64,000 nt of DNA from an uncultured Acetatifactor sp. (GTDB lineage Bacteria > Bacillota > Clostridia > Lachnospirales > Lachnospiraceae): the NCBI GenBank assembly GCA_910587755.1, contig CAJUNZ010000003.1:1908-65907 (forward strand), written 5' to 3'. Of the stretch, positions 1-7,417 are shown one piece after another. Under the pieces are notes generated by a model, which saw nothing but the letters and a program-made list of their open reading frames with translations, ran no database searches and was not told the origin of the DNA. Within the stretch, counting starts at the first letter, position 1. The number at the start of each line of letters is the position of its first letter. Both the position numbers and the translations under genes were made by a program.

Positions 1-72
1 TGCACATCCATTACCTGCTGCATCTGCGGAATCCCGCGCCTGAGTTCCCATGGGTCCTGGCATACCCAATAC

Positions 73-91
73 CCGTCCCCAAAAGGGACGG
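73..91. terminator. GC-rich hairpin (CCGTCCC-CAAAA-GGGACGG), possible 3' end or processing site
   Basis: 7-bp perfect stem with no clear U tract. Confidence 0.3.
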
Positions 92-167
92 CTTCCAATG
101 CCGTTCTTGTTTTTATCTGCTCAGACAGTACCTGCCTTAAGCTATCAAAAGAATTTTCCCGCAGTCC

Positions 168-342
168 TGTTCCCGTTTCCGGTTCTGGTCAAATACAGCC
201 TGACGGCGCATTCATCCACGGAATCCTTCATAATGAACCTGTGTCATCTATTTCTCAATTCAAACCTTACCTGCTTCATCATCACATCTATTCTGAACTC
301 TTAATTCAAATTTTTTCCGGCCTATCCTTTGCCGTCCACGCC
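168..342 (-). ncRNA. Candidate omega/guide RNA region downstream of the dead TnpB
   Basis: Non-coding region directly after the stop, where TnpB/TldR RNAs usually lie. Hairpin potential at 211-237; reads ...GTCAGGCTGTATTTGAC-CAGAACCGG. Position-based inference only. Confidence 0.35.
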
Positions 343-1668
343 TCAAGTCTCACCAGCATTCCCGGCCTTCAGCTTTTTTCCCCGGTTCAGCACATTTACA
401 GCTGTATTCTGTCTCTCCGGCATCTCCTGTCCGCAGGAATTGCAGCGGAATATATCCCCTTCCTTCCTGCCCTCCGCCCCGCAGCGGCAGCATTCGGTGC
501 TGATACCCTTTCCAAACACCTCCGCAAGCTCCACGGACCGTTCCCTGCACTTGCGTTCCAGCCTCTTTTTCACATAGCCTCTCTGCCACATGTTCAGACC
601 CGCATTCACTTTCCGGTTCACTCCTGCTTTCACCATACCAGGAAGTTTTGGAATATACACCACTCCGGGCTTTTCTGTCTCCAGCAGCCGGTTGATCTCC
701 GCATTCACATAAGCGTGCAGCGCCGTCTCCAGCCGCCTCTTTCCCGCAGTATATTTTTTCATGCCCGGATTATTTTCCGCATTTCTGCGGTGACGGGACA
801 GCCGCTCCCTGACATATTCCGTCAGCGCGGACTGATATTCAAAATATTTCTCCCCATACATCTGCCCCGTATGAGTGACAAACATGCACCGAAGCCCCAG
901 GGCCAGGCCGATTTCCCCTTCATATCCTCTAGGGTGCCTCTGCTTTACCTCCACCGGCACATTCAAGGTAATGTTGCCTTCCTTCGGATAAAGCCGAAGG
1001 TATATCTGCCTGGAGTAGCGATTGTTATCCGTGAGCAGAATGAAAAGTCTCTGACGACTCTCTTTCATGGAAATGTATATCCCATGATCGGCATATCTGT
1101 ATCCCTTGGGCGAAATGGTAAATCCATCCGCCGTATCCGTGTGAGGTTTTACCAGGTGTCTCCTGACCTGCCTGCGCAGATACTGGTCCAGCCTGTATGC
1201 ATCCACACCTGCTCTGAGGGCCCCATAAGTCTCCCTCCAGTCCCCTCGAAGATCCGGTTCTCCTCCCGCCAGGACCGCTTCAAAGCAGCGGCTCTGTTTC
1301 ATCACAAAACGCAAATAATGTCTGTCTTCTGCAGTCAGCTCTGCATTTACCTGAATGTTCTTCTCTATCCGGCTCTTGATACGGGTCCATTGGCTTTTAA
1401 TATCACCCAAAGCATCAAAGATAGAGAGGTAAAAGAACACCGATGGAAGTCCCAGCCTCTCCCGCAGCCCGCTTTTGGTCATTTCATTCTGCACCGTATA
1501 GCCTGGATAAATCTTGGGGAGCCCCCCTATACCTCCATACCGGTCATACACAAAATTGCGAACTTTTCTGCAATCTTCCGCAATCTCCTGCAGCCTTGCC
1601 ATATCCCTGACAGAAATCGGTTCCTTGTTATACTGATATACTGTCTTGTATATTGTCTCCTGGGCCAT
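343..1668 (-). CDS. Nuclease-dead TnpB/Cas12f-like protein (TldR-like), 441 aa
   Basis: C-terminal RuvC plus zinc-ribbon layout: EIGLALG (RuvC-I, D->A256), VVYIPKL (RuvC-II, E->P340), ISTECCRCG...FRCNSCG zinc finger, PERQNTAVNV (RuvC-III, D->R419). Start set at ATG 1668 after GAGGGTGG. Confidence 0.85.
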   Translation of the reverse strand: MAQETIYKTVYQYNKEPISVRDMARLQEIAEDCRKVRNFVYDRYGGIGGLPKIYPGYTVQNEMTKSGLRERLGLPSVFFYLSIFDALGDIKSQWTRIKSRIEKNIQVNAELTAEDRHYLRFVMKQSRCFEAVLAGGEPDLRGDWRETYGALRAGVDAYRLDQYLRRQVRRHLVKPHTDTADGFTISPKGYRYADHGIYISMKESRQRLFILLTDNNRYSRQIYLRLYPKEGNITLNVPVEVKQRHPRGYEGEIGLALGLRCMFVTHTGQMYGEKYFEYQSALTEYVRERLSRHRRNAENNPGMKKYTAGKRRLETALHAYVNAEINRLLETEKPGVVYIPKLPGMVKAGVNRKVNAGLNMWQRGYVKKRLERKCRERSVELAEVFGKGISTECCRCGAEGRKEGDIFRCNSCGQEMPERQNTAVNVLNRGKKLKAGNAGET

Positions 1669-1721
1669 AAATCTTTTCCACCCTCTGTCACCCGATAAAT
1701 CTCTCCAGGACTTCCAGTATA

Positions 1722-1750
1722 ATTTCGTAGAATAACTATTTCTACGAAAT
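1722..1750. repeat. Left inverted repeat / putative tyrosine-recombinase crossover site
   Basis: ATTTCGTAGAA-TAACTAT-TTCTACGAAAT, a perfect 11-7-11 palindrome. 1724-1749 is the exact reverse complement of 2149-2174. Confidence 0.85.
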
Positions 1751-1789
1751 CCTGCCGCAAACCTGATATTTTCTGCACCCAAAGCTTGT

Positions 1790-1927
1790 TTGACCAGAAT
1801 TTTGACGGTAAATACCTTTATGAAAGAACCGCCTTTTCGCCCGTCTCACCCTCCGCAGAGCTTGTTTTCTGCGCCTTTTCCAGACAGAGCCAGGACATTT
1901 CCTTGACCAGAATTTTGACGGCGAATA
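1790..1927 (+). repeat. Two 25-bp direct repeats TTGACCAGAATTTTGACGG(TA/CG)AATA (1790-1814, 1903-1927), arm-type-like sites
   Basis: 23/25 identical; internal TTGAC repeat at 12-bp period. A third degenerate copy lies at 2092-2116. Confidence 0.8.
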
Positions 1928-1972
1928 AAATTTTTTCAGGCCCTCTCTGATCAGAAACTTTCTCTGACAAGT

Positions 1973-1999
1973 TAAGAAACTGGATCCCTATGTCGATAG
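1973..1999 (+). promoter_or_regulatory. Possible sigma28/SigD-type promoter
   Basis: TAAG-N15-GTCGATAG versus consensus TAAA-N15-GCCGATAA. A second GTCGATAT lies at 2034-2041. Confidence 0.4.
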
Positions 2000-2091
2000 A
2001 GAAAGTGTTTGTACAGTTTTAGAATAATTTATTGTCGATATCTTTAATATTCTGCCAGAAATTACTTGAAAACTTAATTCCTGAAAAGTGA

Positions 2092-2120
2092 TTGACAAAT
2101 TATTTGACGGTATATATAAT
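2092..2120 (+). promoter_or_regulatory. Perfect sigma70/SigA promoter inside the invertible segment
   Basis: TTGACA (2092-2097), 17 bp, TATAAT (2115-2120). Confidence 0.9.
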
Positions 2121-2147
2121 GAGTACAGTGGCTTTTGCGCCAGAGAG

Positions 2148-2176
2148 GTTTCGTAGAAATAGTTATTCTACGAATA
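2148..2176. repeat. Right inverted repeat / putative tyrosine-recombinase crossover site
   Basis: GTTTCGTAGAA-ATAGTTA-TTCTACGAATA; the spacer is the reverse complement of the left-site spacer. Confidence 0.85.
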
Positions 2177-2391
2177 CCCACATCAAGAAGCACCAGCTGG
2201 GATGTGCTGTATATCGGCTGTTGCTTTATTTTATTTCGTGTTGTTTTACTCTCTTCTTCACAGCAATCACAATACATGGCGTCCCTCCGCAGTTTCCATG
2301 TATTTATGCTTTGATGAGCATATAACAGCATTCATACATAGTGAAGAAAACGAAAAAAGGCTGGTTCCTAAACTGCGGAAGGAGAATTTAT

Positions 2392-3054
2392 ATGCAATTT
2401 GAGCTGATGGCGTCAATGATGTGCGCCAACTATGGCAATCTTGAAAAAGAAGTAAAGGCCTTGGAGGAGGGAGGAATAGACTCTTTCCATATAGATATCA
2501 TGGACGGGCGGTATGTGCCGAACTTTGCCATGTCCCTGAACGATCTGCGGTACATCACTATGGCCACAAAAAAGCCTGTGGACGTGCATTTGATGATAGA
2601 GCACCCCTGCAATAATATCGGTATCTTTTTAGGGTGTCTTCGTAAGGGCGACACGGTATATATCCATCCGGAGGCGGAATACCATCCTTCCACCACCCTG
2701 CAGAAAGTCATCAACGCAGGGATGATTCCCGGTATTGCAATCAATCCCGGCACTTCTGTGGAGACGGTAATGGAGCTTCTTCGCATTGTGAGAAAAGTGC
2801 TTGTGATGTCCGTGAACCCCGGAAATGCCGGACAGATGTACCTGCCCTATGTGGGTAAAAAGATCACCAAACTGCTGGCCCTAAAAGAAGATATGGACTT
2901 TGAGATCTGCTGGGACGGCGCCTGCAGTGCGGACAAGATTCTGGAATATGCCCCCAAGGGAGTGAAAGGGTTTGTGCTGGGCACCACACTGCTCTTCGGA
3001 AAAAAAGAATCCTATGGCGAAACCCTGCAGAATATTCGGGAACTGAAATTTTAG
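2392..3054 (+). CDS. Ribulose-phosphate 3-epimerase family protein (Rpe/AlsE-like)
   Basis: ASMMCAN, FHIDIMDGRYVPNF, DVHLMI, GIAINPGT, VLVMSVNPG motifs; AGGAG SD before ATG 2392. Confidence 0.92.
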   Translation: MQFELMASMMCANYGNLEKEVKALEEGGIDSFHIDIMDGRYVPNFAMSLNDLRYITMATKKPVDVHLMIEHPCNNIGIFLGCLRKGDTVYIHPEAEYHPSTTLQKVINAGMIPGIAINPGTSVETVMELLRIVRKVLVMSVNPGNAGQMYLPYVGKKITKLLALKEDMDFEICWDGACSADKILEYAPKGVKGFVLGTTLLFGKKESYGETLQNIRELKF

Positions 3055-3131
3055 ATTTCAAATTTAAATATGAAAATTGGGAATTCAGAACTTAAATTTA
3101 TAAATTTAGAATTCAAAGCTTAGATTTGAAA
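3042..3131. repeat. Degenerate AT-rich heptamer tandem array (consensus ATTYARA)
   Basis: From 3062: atttaaa tatgaaa attggga attcaga acttaaa tttataa atttaga attcaaa gcttaga tttgaaa. Confidence 0.65.
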
Positions 3132-3142
3132 ATCACACAGAC

Positions 3143-3169
3143 AAAAAAACCTGGTTTAGACAAACCAGG
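3143..3169 (-). terminator. Intrinsic terminator
   Basis: Minus strand CCTGGTTT-GTCT-AAACCAGG followed by T7. Confidence 0.85.
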
Positions 3170-3350
3170 CCCTGAAATGTTAAACTATAGCCAGCCCCAG
3201 AGCATATGGCCCTGCTGTCCGCGACTGACTCCCTGCCAGAGGCTAAGGAATTGTTAAAAGCACAGTTCCAAAATGCTGGAGCTGGCAACGATTCATGAAG
3301 TCCTGAACCACCGATTTTTCCGTGACAAAAACACTTTATAGAAAGAGTCT
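3143..3350 (-). ncRNA. Candidate structured RNA (~200 nt) after the GNAT gene
   Basis: Long stem 3190-3209 with 3268-3286 (a G-U wobble favours the minus strand), inner hairpin, ends in a terminator. No convincing CDS. Confidence 0.4.
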
Positions 3351-3845
3351 TCAAAAACGCTGTAACACCATCCTTTGCTCTATGCAGGGCGTTCCAAGCA
3401 GTATTTCCTGCTCTGTGCCGTCAAAACGAAAGCCATATTTTTCATAAAATCTTATCGCTTTCTCATTCCCCTTCAGCACCCAGAGACAGATTGCAGGGTG
3501 GGCGGCAAGCCTTTCCACCGCCTCATTCATAAGTGCAATTCCCACCTTCCTGCCCTGGTATGCCCGCAGAACATAGAGCGCAAAGATCTCACCATATTCC
3601 GCCATGGTTTCATCCCGATATCTGCCATATCCCGCAAAGCCAATAACCTTATTCCCATCCTTCGCCACCAGCAGATTATCTCTCCATGCACGGGCAATCT
3701 GTTCACAGCGTTCAAGTGTCACCGTCTTCATATATTCCCCATCCACCAGACCCTCATAGGTCTCATGCCAGGACTGAAAATGCACAAACGCCTTACCGCT
3801 GATTTCTTCATCTGTTCTCATCGGCACAATCGTGTACTCTCCCAT
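3351..3845 (-). CDS. GNAT family N-acetyltransferase
   Basis: EIFALYVLRAYQGRKVGIALM (motif A), LWVLKGNEKAIRFYEKYGF. Confidence 0.93.
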   Translation of the reverse strand: MGEYTIVPMRTDEEISGKAFVHFQSWHETYEGLVDGEYMKTVTLERCEQIARAWRDNLLVAKDGNKVIGFAGYGRYRDETMAEYGEIFALYVLRAYQGRKVGIALMNEAVERLAAHPAICLWVLKGNEKAIRFYEKYGFRFDGTEQEILLGTPCIEQRMVLQRF

Positions 3846-3932
3846 GACCGCCCCCTTGGCCCAAGACAAATAGGCTATCCTGAACCGTCTTTTCCCAAAC
3901 TGCCCGCCAGATAAGAAATACAAAAATTTCCC

Positions 3933-5276
3933 TCAGAGTTTGGGATTTTGTATCATAATAGGTTTCCCTGTTTTCTGATACAGCCACACAATGGAACTCC
4001 AGTCGCCGTAGTAGCCGTCGCTCACCGCTATGGCCCGATCCATGCTGGGGGAGTCATCATAGATGCCCCAGCCAGCCTCTCTGTACCTGCACACCATCTC
4101 CCCATACTCCCCCATAAGCTCCGGACGCATGGATGCAAGCGTAGCCTCCGTCAGCGGATGGGGCCTCCACAGCAGCACCACATCTTCCCGGTTCTCCTCA
4201 AAAATCTGCAGGTTTTCCTTGATCTTTTTCATCATGGCCTCACTGTCCTTCAGCAGGGCCGTCACGCTGGTATTGTAGAATATAACTTTTCTGCGGCTGC
4301 CATCCTCCCTCTGAATCAGCCTGTCCCAGCTCTCCGGCAGCTCAAAGTCCTCTCTCCGCAGACCGCAGACCCGATCCACCTTGGGGGAGCCCAGTCCCAG
4401 TATCTTTTTCTCCCATGTAGGCCGAAGACTCTCATCTGTGTGCCTGGTGAGCACATCCACATAAATCTGCCGCATGGCCTCCGACTGCACCACCACCCGG
4501 TCCGCATTCATCACCCCTGCAGTGGTGACAAAATGCTCCATTCCTTCCACTGCCTCCTTATCGGAGGGGTCGATCTCGGCCAGGATAAAGTAGGGAATAT
4601 AGACCAGCTTATCTGTAAACTGCTTCAGGTTTTTAGAGTAAAAAAACGGAGGCACACTGGTGACAAAATTTCCCTCATCATAAGGGTTGTGAATGAAAAT
4701 AACATCCGGGTGTCTGGCCTCAAAATCATAGGATTCATAGCCCATCACCGGCACTTCCTCCGGGTACTGGGCAATCTCATAGTGCAGTTCCCCGAAAGAA
4801 CCGTCAGGATTCTTGTCATAATAGGGAATAGGGATAACCAGTGCCCTGCAGTCCGGATCTTCATCCGCCGCCTTCCACACAGACTCCAGAGAATCCCACA
4901 TGGAAGCTTTATAAGGCAGAAACACCACTTCCCTCTGAATCCGAATCTCATGGTTGATGGAATTTTCCACCCGCACCAGAAGTTTTCTGAGCTTTTTCTG
5001 CATCTGCCATGTATTCACGGAAGCTCCCTCCAGAAGCTTCTCACAGAACTGGTACAGAACCTCGCAGTACTCCTCCAGGCAGCGGACCGTCTCCGTCCCC
5101 TCCCCCTCCGTACTGTCAACCAGAGTGCCGATACCTATGGCCCCCTGCTGACACTGCTCCATAAGCTCTGCCGCGCCCTGAACCCGTTTATTCTCAATCA
5201 GTTTCACAATCTCCCCATGTGCCTCACTGAGCACTTCTATGGTCTCCAGGCACTGCTTCTTCTGAAAATTTCTCAT
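3933..5276 (-). CDS. CDP-glycerol/polyol glycerophosphotransferase (TagF-like) family protein
   Basis: LGSPKVD, LLWRPHP, YYGDWSSIVWLYQKTGKPI motifs; next to CDP-polyol synthesis genes. Confidence 0.65.
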   Translation of the reverse strand: MRNFQKKQCLETIEVLSEAHGEIVKLIENKRVQGAAELMEQCQQGAIGIGTLVDSTEGEGTETVRCLEEYCEVLYQFCEKLLEGASVNTWQMQKKLRKLLVRVENSINHEIRIQREVVFLPYKASMWDSLESVWKAADEDPDCRALVIPIPYYDKNPDGSFGELHYEIAQYPEEVPVMGYESYDFEARHPDVIFIHNPYDEGNFVTSVPPFFYSKNLKQFTDKLVYIPYFILAEIDPSDKEAVEGMEHFVTTAGVMNADRVVVQSEAMRQIYVDVLTRHTDESLRPTWEKKILGLGSPKVDRVCGLRREDFELPESWDRLIQREDGSRRKVIFYNTSVTALLKDSEAMMKKIKENLQIFEENREDVVLLWRPHPLTEATLASMRPELMGEYGEMVCRYREAGWGIYDDSPSMDRAIAVSDGYYGDWSSIVWLYQKTGKPIMIQNPKL

Positions 5277-5321
5277 TCCTGCCCCCTGCCGGGCACTGTA
5301 CGCGCCCTAAATCATATTCTT

Positions 5322-5391
5322 AAAACCGGATCCGATATACCTGATCCGATATATCAGATCCGAAAAACCAAATCCAAAAAAACAGATCCAA
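5322..5391. repeat. Five tandem 14-bp degenerate repeats
   Basis: aaaaccggatccga tatacctgatccga tatatcagatccga aaaaccaaatccaa aaaaacagatccaa. Confidence 0.8.
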
Positions 5392-5508
5392 AAAACTTGA
5401 AACCATCCCTTTCCTGCCTGCGGAATTTCCTGTCCGACGGCATTCCTCCGCCGGATATCTTCCCGTTCCCGCCCTTAGAACTGTGCCGAAAAAAGATGTA
5501 CGCCAAGT

Positions 5509-6564
5509 TCAAAACATTGTCATAATTTTAATATAATCCTGGGTCTTATCCCGCATAATATGAAGCCCCCGATGCAGCTCCTCCAGAGAATATCTGTGAG
5601 TGATAAGCCTGCCGGGATCCACCCGCTTCGCCCCAAGACGTTCCATGCAGTAGTTCCAGTCATCATCCGCCCCATGGGTAAACGAAGAGTTCCAGGTTCC
5701 CGTGATCCGCAGCTGATGGCGCAGAATTTTCCAATAGGTTTCCATCTCCAAAGCCATGGAGGAGGCAGGATTTCCCATGAGACAGATCCGCCCCCCTGGA
5801 GCAGTGTTTTCCACCGCCTGGGCCACCGTCTCATTCTTTCCCACACACTCAAAGAACACATCCGCCCCCAGGCCGCCGGTCCGCTCCCGGATCCACTGAC
5901 CCGGATCCTGAGTCCTGCTGTCACAGTAGTCCCCCGATTCCATCCCCAGTTCCAAAACCATCTTCCGCTGGGCCTCCTTGTTGCCCACCACCAGAATCCT
6001 GCCCGCCTCCTGGACCCCCGCCTCTCTCAAAAACATCAAAAGCAGCAGGCCGATGGTTCCCAGGCCGCACACCACAGCGGTCTCCCCCTTCTCCGGCAGA
6101 GCCCTCCGCATGGCATGCACCGCCACCGCCATAGGTTCCAGCATGGCAGCCTCCTCATAGGAAACCTGTTCCGGCAGCGGAATCAGATTCCAGGCCGGAA
6201 CCGCCGCATACTCTCCAAAGCCCCCGTCCCTGCGGGAACCCAGATAGCCATAGTTTTGGCACATCTCGAACTGTCCTTTTCTGCAGGGCAGGCACTCCCT
6301 GCAGGGAATCAGCGGAAACACACCTGCCCGCCGCCCCTGCCAGGCAGGATCCACTCCCGGTCCCGTCCGGACCACCAGGCCGGAAAACTCATGCCCCGGA
6401 ATCAGGGGATGTACATGGGCCCCCGTCCTGTATATTCTCGGAATATCCGACCCGCAGATCCCCGCTGCCTTTACCTGCAGCAACACTTCCCCCTTAGCCA
6501 GAATCGGCTCCTCCACCGTCTCCCAGCGCAGGTCATCCACCCCCTGCAGCACCCATGCCTTCAT
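5509..6564 (-). CDS. Zinc-dependent polyol(-phosphate) dehydrogenase (GatD/TarJ-like)
   Basis: GICGSD, GHEFSG, CRECLPC...C zinc site, GLGTIG Rossmann motif. Confidence 0.9.
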   Translation of the reverse strand: MKAWVLQGVDDLRWETVEEPILAKGEVLLQVKAAGICGSDIPRIYRTGAHVHPLIPGHEFSGLVVRTGPGVDPAWQGRRAGVFPLIPCRECLPCRKGQFEMCQNYGYLGSRRDGGFGEYAAVPAWNLIPLPEQVSYEEAAMLEPMAVAVHAMRRALPEKGETAVVCGLGTIGLLLLMFLREAGVQEAGRILVVGNKEAQRKMVLELGMESGDYCDSRTQDPGQWIRERTGGLGADVFFECVGKNETVAQAVENTAPGGRICLMGNPASSMALEMETYWKILRHQLRITGTWNSSFTHGADDDWNYCMERLGAKRVDPGRLITHRYSLEELHRGLHIMRDKTQDYIKIMTMF

Positions 6565-6606
6565 CCCTTTCCTCCTCCACAAAAACTTCCGGCAGCGCCC
6601 ATCTTC

Positions 6607-7314
6607 TTATTCCCCGGAACATCTGCGGGCAAGAATCTCCTCAAACCGTCTCAGATCCTCCATCGTGGTTATCTTGAAATTCCCCTCATCCCCGGGGATT
6701 ATGGCAATGTCCATGCCCGCCAAAACCGCAGGTTCCGTGGAACCGTTGATTCCCCTGATCCCATCCGGAAGCAGTCTCAGGTTGGCCTCATAATACCGCC
6801 CCAGCCGAAACACCTCCGGTGCCTGCCCTGCAAAAATTTCACTGCGTTTTAACAGGGATGTGATGGTCTTCCCGTCGCTGCTGGCGTACACTGTATCCTT
6901 CATGGGAAGTACCGGCAGAACACCCTCGTGGGACTGTGCCGCCTCCAGGCAGGCCGAGACCATCTCCTCCGTCAGCAGAGGCCTGGCAGCGTCATGGATG
7001 AGCACACAGTCCTCCTCCCCTCCATAGGCCCTGATATCCTCCAGCCCCTGGAGAATAGAAAGCTGTCTGTTCTCCCCCGGATCAGAAAAACCCCGGAATT
7101 TTCCATCCCTGTCAAATGTCTCCAGACACTCCCGAATCTTTTCCCTCCAACAGGGCTGAGCCACAATCTGAATGGCGTCCACCCCCCTGTGCAGGGCCAG
7201 ACATTCTATGCAGTACCCTATGACGGGCCGTCCCCCTGCCTCAATATACTGCTTTGGAATCTCCGCCCCCAGGCGCAGCCCTGCACCCCCGGAGAGTATC
7301 AGTGCAATATTCAT
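6607..7314 (-). CDS. IspD/TarI family cytidylyltransferase
   Basis: LSGGAGLRLG...PKQY, LIHDAARP, QAPEVF, NFKITT motifs. Confidence 0.92.
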   Translation of the reverse strand: MNIALILSGGAGLRLGAEIPKQYIEAGGRPVIGYCIECLALHRGVDAIQIVAQPCWREKIRECLETFDRDGKFRGFSDPGENRQLSILQGLEDIRAYGGEEDCVLIHDAARPLLTEEMVSACLEAAQSHEGVLPVLPMKDTVYASSDGKTITSLLKRSEIFAGQAPEVFRLGRYYEANLRLLPDGIRGINGSTEPAVLAGMDIAIIPGDEGNFKITTMEDLRRFEEILARRCSGE

Positions 7315-7417
7315 AGTTCCCCCATCCTGGACCAACTGCCTTCCCAAATCAACATGGCCCCTGCGAATACCTCACCCCGCAGACCAATAAACAAAAAAAC
7401 ATCGAATCTGCAATGCC

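Follow-up and report, generated by a model that had tools for sequence, protein, structure and literature searches.

The left end of a 64,000-nucleotide (nt) stretch of contig C3 (CAJUNZ010000003.1) from a mouse-gut Lachnospiraceae bacterium (uncultured Acetatifactor sp.; genome G000), hereafter the window, includes a gene for a TnpB-like protein on the minus strand (343..1668), a conserved RNA region that follows this gene on the same strand, and a ribulose-phosphate 3-epimerase-family gene that diverges from it on the plus strand (2392..3054). Between the two genes lies an element at 1723-2175 in which a consensus promoter is enclosed by two inverted sites. The element is very probably an inverton, i.e., a segment in which a tyrosine recombinase flips a promoter so that it serves the TnpB-like gene in the flipped orientation.

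The element is bounded by an exact 26-nt inverted repeat, with copies at 1724-1749 and 2149-2174 that are 100% complementary and lie 399 nt apart. Each copy is a palindrome around an asymmetric (non-palindromic) 7-nt spacer. The gene-proximal recombination site (1723..1749), 56 nt upstream of the ATG at 1668, consists of the inverted arms and spacer TTTCGTAGAA-TAACTAT-TTCTACGAAA, and the distal site (2149..2175) reads TTTCGTAGAA-ATAGTTA-TTCTACGAA(T); the invertible segment between them is 399 base pairs (bp) long (1750..2148). The two sites are inverted relative to one another, as shown by their spacers, TAACTAT and ATAGTTA, which are exact reverse complements. When up to 3 mismatches are allowed, the pattern TTCGTAGAA-N7-TTCTACGAA matches the window twice, compared with 0.00 matches expected from 100 shuffles. 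The left site has perfect 11-nt arms (ATTTCGTAGAA/TTCTACGAAAT) and the right site perfect arms of 9-10 nt. Arms of 9-11 nt around a 7-nt asymmetric spacer are the layout of tyrosine-recombinase core sites of the Cre/loxP, FLP/FRT and XerCD/dif type.

Within the segment, a sigma-70-type consensus promoter, TTGACA-17-TATAAT, is located on the plus strand at 2092..2120 (consensus score 12/12). Its -10 hexamer ends 28 nt before position 2149. In the window orientation, transcription from it would leave the segment across the distal site and head for the epimerase gene, and the TnpB-like gene is left with no more than a 9/12 promoter-like match that overlaps the proximal site. Inversion (x to 3898-x) moves the end of the -10 hexamer to 1778, 110 nt upstream of the ATG at 1668. 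Judged by sequence, the 2092-2120 promoter thus reads across a boundary of the segment; it is predicted to be active, and its orientation would alter expression. The original prediction, made from the letters of the window, had described the 26-bp reverse complements, the palindromes with asymmetric 7-bp spacers in mutually inverted sites, a promoter ending about 28 bp inside the right site and its relocation to about 110 bp upstream of the ATG, all of which were recovered by the repeat and promoter searches. Its 11-7-11 description of the sites holds for the left site and fails for the right one, where the perfect arms are shorter.

The main promoter belongs to a family of direct repeats, D1 (TTGACCAGAATTTTGACGGTAAATA), of which three 25-nt copies lie inside the segment on the plus strand, at 1790-1814, 1903-1927 and 2092-2116 (92% and 76% identity). 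The third copy is the consensus promoter, and the second contains a weaker promoter-like match, TTGACC-17-TAAAAT (1903-1931; 10/12); together the two further copies and this match occupy 1790..1931. By eye, the reverse complement of D1 resembles a motif at the stop codon of the recombinase gene in relatives (...TTTGCCGTCAAATAA.TGGTCA). As a tblastn search of the 399-bp segment with six recombinases for a relic of such a gene gave noise only (best E 0.013), this likeness stays a by-eye observation. At one related locus (L055), an extra D1 copy is located upstream of the recombinase gene, an arrangement that would permit deletion of the gene between direct repeats.

The segment occurs in both orientations in nature with otherwise identical flanks. 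The stretch 1200-2700 was found in at least 20 public sequencing runs from 8 studies, in all cases as assembled contigs, and four runs from four studies were compared over window positions 1000-3000. Two of the four are inverted between the repeats, with break-points inside the 26-nt repeats, and show the inversion junction at the distal site. In run X15 (study P5), a 12,458-nt contig (record 7; depth 33.9) follows the window as +1000-1723, -1724-2174 and +2175-3000 with 0 other letter differences. In run X16 (study P6), a 2,553-nt contig (record 11) carries 1750-2148 on the strand opposite to both flanks, with three single-letter differences. Runs X6 and X14 each contain one long contig colinear with the window, and these may be the source of the window's assembly. 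Relatives also occur in either orientation: the promoter is directed toward the gene in genome G089 and away from it in G350, and two paralogs in G081 are mutually opposite. The original prediction had named the absence of flipped junctions from reads and related genomes as the outcome that would speak against it; the flipped form is present in the contigs of X15 and X16 and among the relatives.

Comparison with homologous loci connects this type of site to the TnpB-like gene and to recombinases. In genome G000 (171 contigs, 82% complete), contigs C3, C10 and C82 each encode a paralog of the protein; identity among the three is 58-63% at the protein level and about 65-69% at the DNA level. A survey of 300 genera of the family, each represented by one genome, plus 60 genomes of the genus added 21 loci, and a scan of the collection with the single protein added 2, giving 26 loci including the paralogs. 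In 14 of the 26, an inverted pair of the TTCG(T/C)AGA-N7 type is located upstream of the gene; in relatives the homologous site lies 30-250 nt upstream of it. Another 5 loci have a pair of a different palindrome (CCAAAAGGTGTAC...; L028, L029, L020 and L049 by script, L047 by eye), and one (L048) has a third kind of inverted repeat. Solo sites occur at three loci, namely C10, L011 and L010, the last of which is cut by the contig start. Two loci are without a site (L017, and L019, where the gene is broken), and at L032 just 140 nt of upstream sequence is present, so that a pair is not judgeable.

The spacers are exact reverse complements of each other in all 14 pairs, and yet the 14 spacers are all different, and arms often differ by 1-5 letters. 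Pairwise identity of spacers fits strand exchange by tyrosine recombinases, which requires spacer identity. A tyrosine recombinase gene is located inside the segment at 9 of the 14 loci and adjacent to it at 2 more (11/14 in total). In eight of these loci the gene lies inside a segment of 1.4-1.5 kilobases (kb), and in L027 it lies on the other strand of a 3.9-kb segment; L026 and L059 have 150-160-bp segments with the recombinase just outside. Segments of about 400 bp without a recombinase are found in the window, in C82 and in L058. Among the recombinases of these loci, 4 are Phage_integrase proteins by Pfam and 6 are homologs by tblastn, and that of L027 (G234) was counted only since, as query, it matched the same recombinases of G000. 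At seven loci (the window, C82, L058, L053, L054, L055 and L023), a homologous TTGACA...TATAAT promoter reads out through the distal site, from which it is 27-30 nt away. At the two short-type loci, a promoter lies 37-39 nt from a site and faces the gene in L026 (G089) and away from it in L059 (G350). When the window segment is flipped, the order promoter, site, gene is the same as in G089.

Where the other palindrome occurs, a serine recombinase gene lies upstream (confirmed as Resolvase for L028), and this difference in palindrome between tyrosine and serine loci indicates that the type of site tracks the type of recombinase. In the serine-type paralogs L028 and L029 of G081, the segments are 108-111 bp long, and their opposite orientations are seen as reverse-complementary promoter sequence. 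Perfect palindromes of the serine-recombinase type (CAAAAAAGTATACTTTTTTG) also exist in G000. Contig C19 begins with two of them (32 and 198; 166 nt apart), and a single copy at C81:4255 has a serine recombinase gene (C81:2806-3378) about 900 nt away; G000 probably has additional invertons at these places. The repeat at L048 (G342), ATGCAACATTTTGCTCCAAAATGT/ACATTTTGGAGCAGAATGTTGCAT (23/24), at -478..-455 and -128..-105 relative to the gene, flanks 326 bp upstream of the homolog and hints that one more kind of recombinase and site is used there.

Further sites of the tyrosine type are present in G000: an inverted pair on C82 (TATTTAT/ATAAATA), a promoter-end copy at the end of contig C135, and the solo site on C10 (C10:26330-26354; L005/L008). 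The solo site has no partner within 4.5 kb, carries one arm mismatch and has the spacer ATAGTTA, which is the same as that of both C3 sites and of the C135 site. Identical spacers at different loci mean that, in principle, inter-locus recombination could rearrange the chromosome. One sequence, GTAGTTTACAATTTTTGAACCTTTCCAATCC..., truncates both the TnpB-like gene on C82 (1-70), at residue ~290, and the promoter module on C135 (4600-4673), ~70 nt past the promoter. Each contig stops after this sequence, which resembles the terminus of a repeated insertion element.

Contig C3 contains none of the 14 Phage_integrase matches of the genome, and a serine-recombinase query matches only on C98, C50, C81 and C16. 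These searches agree with the original prediction that the window encodes no recombinase, and the genome search that it proposed yielded both the additional sites on C82, C135 and C10 and the 14 tyrosine-recombinase matches. Its assignment of the sites to the tyrosine type is likewise in accord with the comparison, in which tyrosine recombinases accompany 11 of 14 pairs and serine loci have a different palindrome. The likely trans-acting invertase of the window locus, and the best candidate by sequence, is the product of C22:2414-3556, whose identity to the in-segment recombinases is 73% for L053, 67% for L023, 68% for L055 and 65% for L054. Paralogs on C43, C111 and C112 are just 31-40% identical to any of the 10 locus recombinases compared. 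The C22 protein is a full-length Phage_integrase (PF00589, 92 bits) and contains GIRVGE, HATRHTF, LGHAS and NRYVH, which we take to hold the catalytic R, H-x-x-R, H and Y. The C22 gene is not flanked by sites of this type.

The gene that the switch would serve in the flipped orientation encodes a protein of 441 amino acids related to TnpB and Cas12f. It matches Pfam Cas12f1-like_TNB just above the cut-off (27.2 bits) and NCBIfam guided_TnpB below its cut-off (E 5e-15), and it has a sequence match to the solved TnpB structure PDB 8iaz (E 7.9e-5). An AlphaFold2 model built on a 34-sequence alignment has a mean predicted local distance difference test score (pLDDT) of 85.5. A Foldseek search with this model gives 93 matches at E<=0.001 (top E 3.7e-13), with template-modelling (TM) scores of just 0.25-0.40; among the matches listed, all are Cas12, TnpB, Fanzor or Cas12-related proteins (CasX, CasLambda, TranC). 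The RuvC motifs differ from those of 8iaz (IGLALGL versus IGIDLGL, VVYIPKL versus ITIEDL and PERQN versus EDRAFN), and in the triad columns of 14 family members D is replaced by A or S, E by P, V or A, and D by E or K (I in L016 alone). As the triad residues are replaced across the family, its members are, on sequence grounds, conserved and putatively nuclease-dead TnpB-like proteins, a class named TldR in the literature. Two features of that class, a TnpB/Cas12f fold and a RuvC D-E-D triad mutated at two or more positions, are both found here and make the family TldR-like.

The conserved structured non-coding RNA region begins at the stop codon of the TnpB-like gene and was delineated by alignment and a consensus fold. 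It covers 1..342 on the minus strand and continues for ~137 nt past the left edge of the window, to about C3:1771. One stretch of 72 nt shows 90% identity between paralogs that share 69% identity in coding DNA. The consensus fold over 11 loci has 42 pairs, 21 of them with compensatory changes, and its closing helix pairs the stop-codon region with the 3' block ...CCTTATT. The invariant blocks (ACGGCATTAGAAG, GGGTATGCCAGGACC, GGGAGCGAAGC and CCTTATT) are separated by hairpins of variable length. Rfam contains no family for the 3' RNA or for the leader, the sole match being a snoRNA far below threshold. The fold of the protein, the lost nuclease residues and the attached conserved RNA suggest that the protein would act in an RNA-guided manner.

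Searches for a guide gave no candidate target. The 45 nt past the 3' end of the scaffold of C3 and C10 have no match longer than 11 nt in the four loci of the genome itself. At 19 loci, the 32 nt past the scaffold, each compared with its own locus and with shuffled controls, gave no match above the controls except for a local repeat at L013, and the internal variable regions of C3 and C10 have only scattered matches of at most 14 nt in the whole genome. L013/L027 (G234) is the only locus with a guide-region match elsewhere in the locus (16 nt). There, repeated long palindromes (AAGTATTTCTAAGGTGCCAAAAGACGCCACCTAAGAAATACT and variants) are found between the RNA and the next gene, ~15-200 nt after the RNA.

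These features can be combined into a model for the switch. A site-specific tyrosine recombinase would recombine the two inverted core sites and thereby flip the 399-bp promoter segment. In the assembled orientation, the promoter would fire via the distal site toward the epimerase gene, leaving the TnpB-like gene with a weak promoter-like match. In the flipped orientation, it would fire via the proximal site into the TnpB-like gene, the 3' RNA and the downstream glycopolymer-type gene, with transcription presumably continuing through to the downstream genes. Relatives retain what would be the ancestral module, with its own recombinase gene inside the segment and an outward promoter at the far end. 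The window locus would have lost the recombinase gene and would have to be served in trans, most plausibly by the C22 recombinase.

Several points weigh against this model. The evidence for inversion consists of assembled contigs, which show the majority orientation of each sample, and the two orientations could be fixed strain differences. A perfect 26-bp repeat could in principle also flip by homologous recombination. The promoter pattern is absent from 5 of the 14 segments (L024, L025, L056, L057 and L027), and the detectable promoter faces away from the gene in 8 of 9 tyrosine-type assemblies, implying that the ON state is rarely the assembled one. Promoter activity and the ON and OFF states are deduced from sequence. 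The contig carries no recombinase, and the C22 candidate is proposed by homology alone, in a genome that is 82% complete.

The palindromes might instead be operators of a dimeric repressor, or RNA hairpins in two divergent leaders, the inversion being a by-product of homologous recombination. Both sites are identical when read toward each flanking gene and would place the same hairpin with a 10-bp stem in both leaders; the stem has compensatory changes in relatives (e.g., TTCGTAGAA/TTCTACGAA versus TTCGCAGAA/TTCTGCGAA), solo sites stand upstream of some homologs (C10, L011), and the weak promoter-like match of the TnpB-like gene overlaps the proximal site. An operator or hairpin, however, leaves unexplained why the partner site is constantly inverted, why spacers are matched within all 14 pairs yet specific to each locus, why a tyrosine recombinase gene lies in or beside 11 of 14 segments, and why a different palindrome accompanies serine recombinases. 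Moreover, the epimerase homologs of relatives lack such a site. Operators or hairpins are therefore an improbable account of the repeats, although an extra role of the hairpin in the leader transcript of an inverton is possible.

An assembly artefact at the inverted repeat would also account for the flipped contigs, as all four runs are represented by assembled contigs and assemblers can mis-join at repeats. Logan contigs are built with 31-letter words, so junction-spanning words must exist in the reads, and the repeat, at 26-27 nt, is shorter than such words. The same flip is seen in two runs of different studies and is absent in two others, and similar differences in orientation exist between independent genome assemblies, which makes an artefact very improbable. 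A transposon of the IS200/IS605 type carrying the tnpB-like gene, with the palindromes as its subterminal end hairpins, would agree with the likeness of the gene to tnpB, with the end hairpins of such elements and with the presence in the genome of three diverged paralogs, each with a site. This explanation is hardly credible: both palindromes are found on the upstream side of the gene, in opposite orientation to one another, the DNA that they enclose flips, and the RuvC triad is lost across the family. In addition, G000 (82% complete) has 0 matches to PF01797, the Y1 transposase, and the degree of divergence among the paralogs shows that they are not recent copies. The hallmarks of an IS200/IS605 transposon end, a Y1 (HUH) TnpA and recent identical copies, were both absent from this 82%-complete genome. 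An inverton flipped by a tyrosine recombinase thus remains the preferred reading of the element.

The genes around the switch point to glycopolymer synthesis. The epimerase gene matches Pfam PF00834 (E 2e-44) and, below the cut-off, NCBIfam rpe (E 2e-47). It is the gene faced by the promoter in the window orientation, across a 217-nt leader without any other promoter-like match. Homologs of the epimerase in 4 genomes of the same genus have no such site nearby, suggesting that the link between switch and epimerase is local to this locus. The leader also contains a 14-nt inverted repeat (TCCCTCCGCAGTTT with AAACTGCGGAAGGA) at 2282-2295 and 2370-2383 (93% complementary). This repeat would mask the ribosome-binding site GGAAGGAG, 9 nt before the ATG at 2392, and translational control of the epimerase is possible.

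On the other side of the switch, the RNA is followed on the same strand by a gene of a conserved family whose proteins start with MRKxQK, and no terminator-like site is found on the minus strand between the TnpB-like gene and this next gene. The MRKxQK family has a weak likeness to Glyphos_transf (E 0.0016, below the cut-off) and no NCBIfam match. A paralog of this family is encoded at 3933-5276, beyond the epimerase gene, and is followed by genes for a zinc alcohol dehydrogenase (5509-6582) and an IspD-like cytidylyltransferase (6607-7347). The last two resemble, in our view, the TarI/TarJ pair of ribitol-phosphate polymer synthesis, and the gene set 2392-7347 presumably belongs to a ribitol-phosphate-type wall polymer, in which case the switch sits between two parts of one glycopolymer region. 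Downstream of the C10 paralog are GT1/GT4 and DUF4422 genes. No csrA or flagellin gene was recognized by eye among the first residues of the downstream open reading frames listed, which were not scanned with a family library.

Tyrosine recombinases that invert a promoter segment of a few hundred bp between short inverted repeats are well represented by E. coli fimS (FimB/FimE) and the RecV switches of C. difficile. A single C. difficile recombinase, encoded elsewhere, acts on several switches in trans, in the manner proposed here for the C22 recombinase on C3 and C82. The repeats of fimS and the RecV switches are not known to be palindromes around a 7-bp spacer of this sequence, and their targets are fimbriae, flagella, a cell-wall protein and cyclic di-GMP enzymes, with no TnpB-like gene among them. 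In the Salmonella H segment (Hin, hixL/hixR, fljBA promoter), the promoter crosses one boundary site and drives the adjacent operon in one orientation only. Like the H segment, nine of the relatives have a recombinase and an outward promoter inside the segment. Unlike Hin, which is a serine recombinase needing an enhancer and Fis, the recombinase here is of the tyrosine type and is lost from the window copy. The capsular invertons of Bacteroides, with UpxY and UpxZ, are similar in that multiple surface-glycan loci per genome have an invertible promoter, with regulators encoded ahead of the biosynthesis genes. The leading genes there code for antiterminator proteins and trans-locus inhibitors, and a serine recombinase acts as master invertase, whereas here the first gene encodes a dead relative of RNA-guided nucleases with its own RNA.

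The nearest published system is a set of invertons, linked to hin, that precede csrA-associated tldR loci in gut Firmicutes and in Flavonifractor comprise inversions of ~120 bp containing a FliA-dependent promoter (bioRxiv 10.1101/2025.07.22.666180; also listed as PMC13418256, Nat Microbiol 2026). The same work describes several csrA-tldR loci per genome with predicted cross-repression, and guides of the csrA clade that are not predictable bioinformatically and call for RNA immunoprecipitation sequencing (RIP-seq; bioRxiv 10.1101/2025.07.22.666180). The TldR papers distinguish three clades, associated with fliC, oppF and csrA, and present the roles of most clades as unknown; a tree has been published (10.1101/2023.11.30.569447). 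A dead TnpB-like gene behind a short invertible promoter, several loci per genome and guides that are hard to predict are common to the csrA-tldR loci and those described here. In the csrA-tldR loci the recombinase gene is directly upstream, an arrangement which the serine-type loci L028 and L029 of G081 resemble. Differences lie in the invertase, which is the serine recombinase Hin there and of the tyrosine type, with matching sites, here; in the promoter, FliA-dependent there and a sigma-70 consensus here; and in the partners, csrA and flagellin there and glycopolymer-type neighbours here. In the loci described here, the recombinase is also often inside the invertible segment, which is 1.4 kb and once 3.9 kb long.

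An inverton before a dead TnpB gene is already in print for serine invertases and flagellin control. In the literature searched, no tyrosine-recombinase inverton at a TnpB-like gene was found, and a published list of 506 dead TnpBs may include this family. Nor was there a report of a segment with its own tyrosine recombinase and an outward promoter, of recombinase-less derivatives served in trans, or of a link to glycopolymer-type genes; searches with 9-mers of the site gave unrelated primer matches only. The evidence supports the view that the element is a real inverton of the tyrosine-recombinase type, ordinary as a mechanism and notable for its target and its conserved cassette. Invertons are common in gut bacteria, and what is less ordinary is what this switch serves: across the family, a promoter switch is paired with a nuclease-dead TnpB-like protein and a structured RNA, heading surface-glycopolymer genes. 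As this tyrosine version differs in neighbourhood from the serine version reported in 2025-26, and often has the recombinase inside the flipping segment, placing RNA-guided regulators under phase variation appears to be a recurrent design. If it is, the loci provide a concrete starting point for testing what a TldR-like clade of uncharacterised function does in the cell, along with a compact natural cassette of switch and programmable regulator.

A more far-reaching idea, which we regard as possible but doubtful, is that the loci form a phase-variable, RNA-guided choice system for surface glycopolymers, in which a tyrosine-recombinase inverton of its own turns each locus on and the dead TnpB, as the first product and loaded with the structured RNA of that locus, silences rival loci, of which the three paralogs in this genome would be examples. 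The protein would then have a role like that of the UpxZ trans-locus inhibitors of Bacteroides, exerted via RNA-guided DNA binding, and the self-contained cassette, composed of site, promoter, recombinase, site, dead TnpB and RNA, would have moved between glycan loci as a portable unit of switch and regulator.

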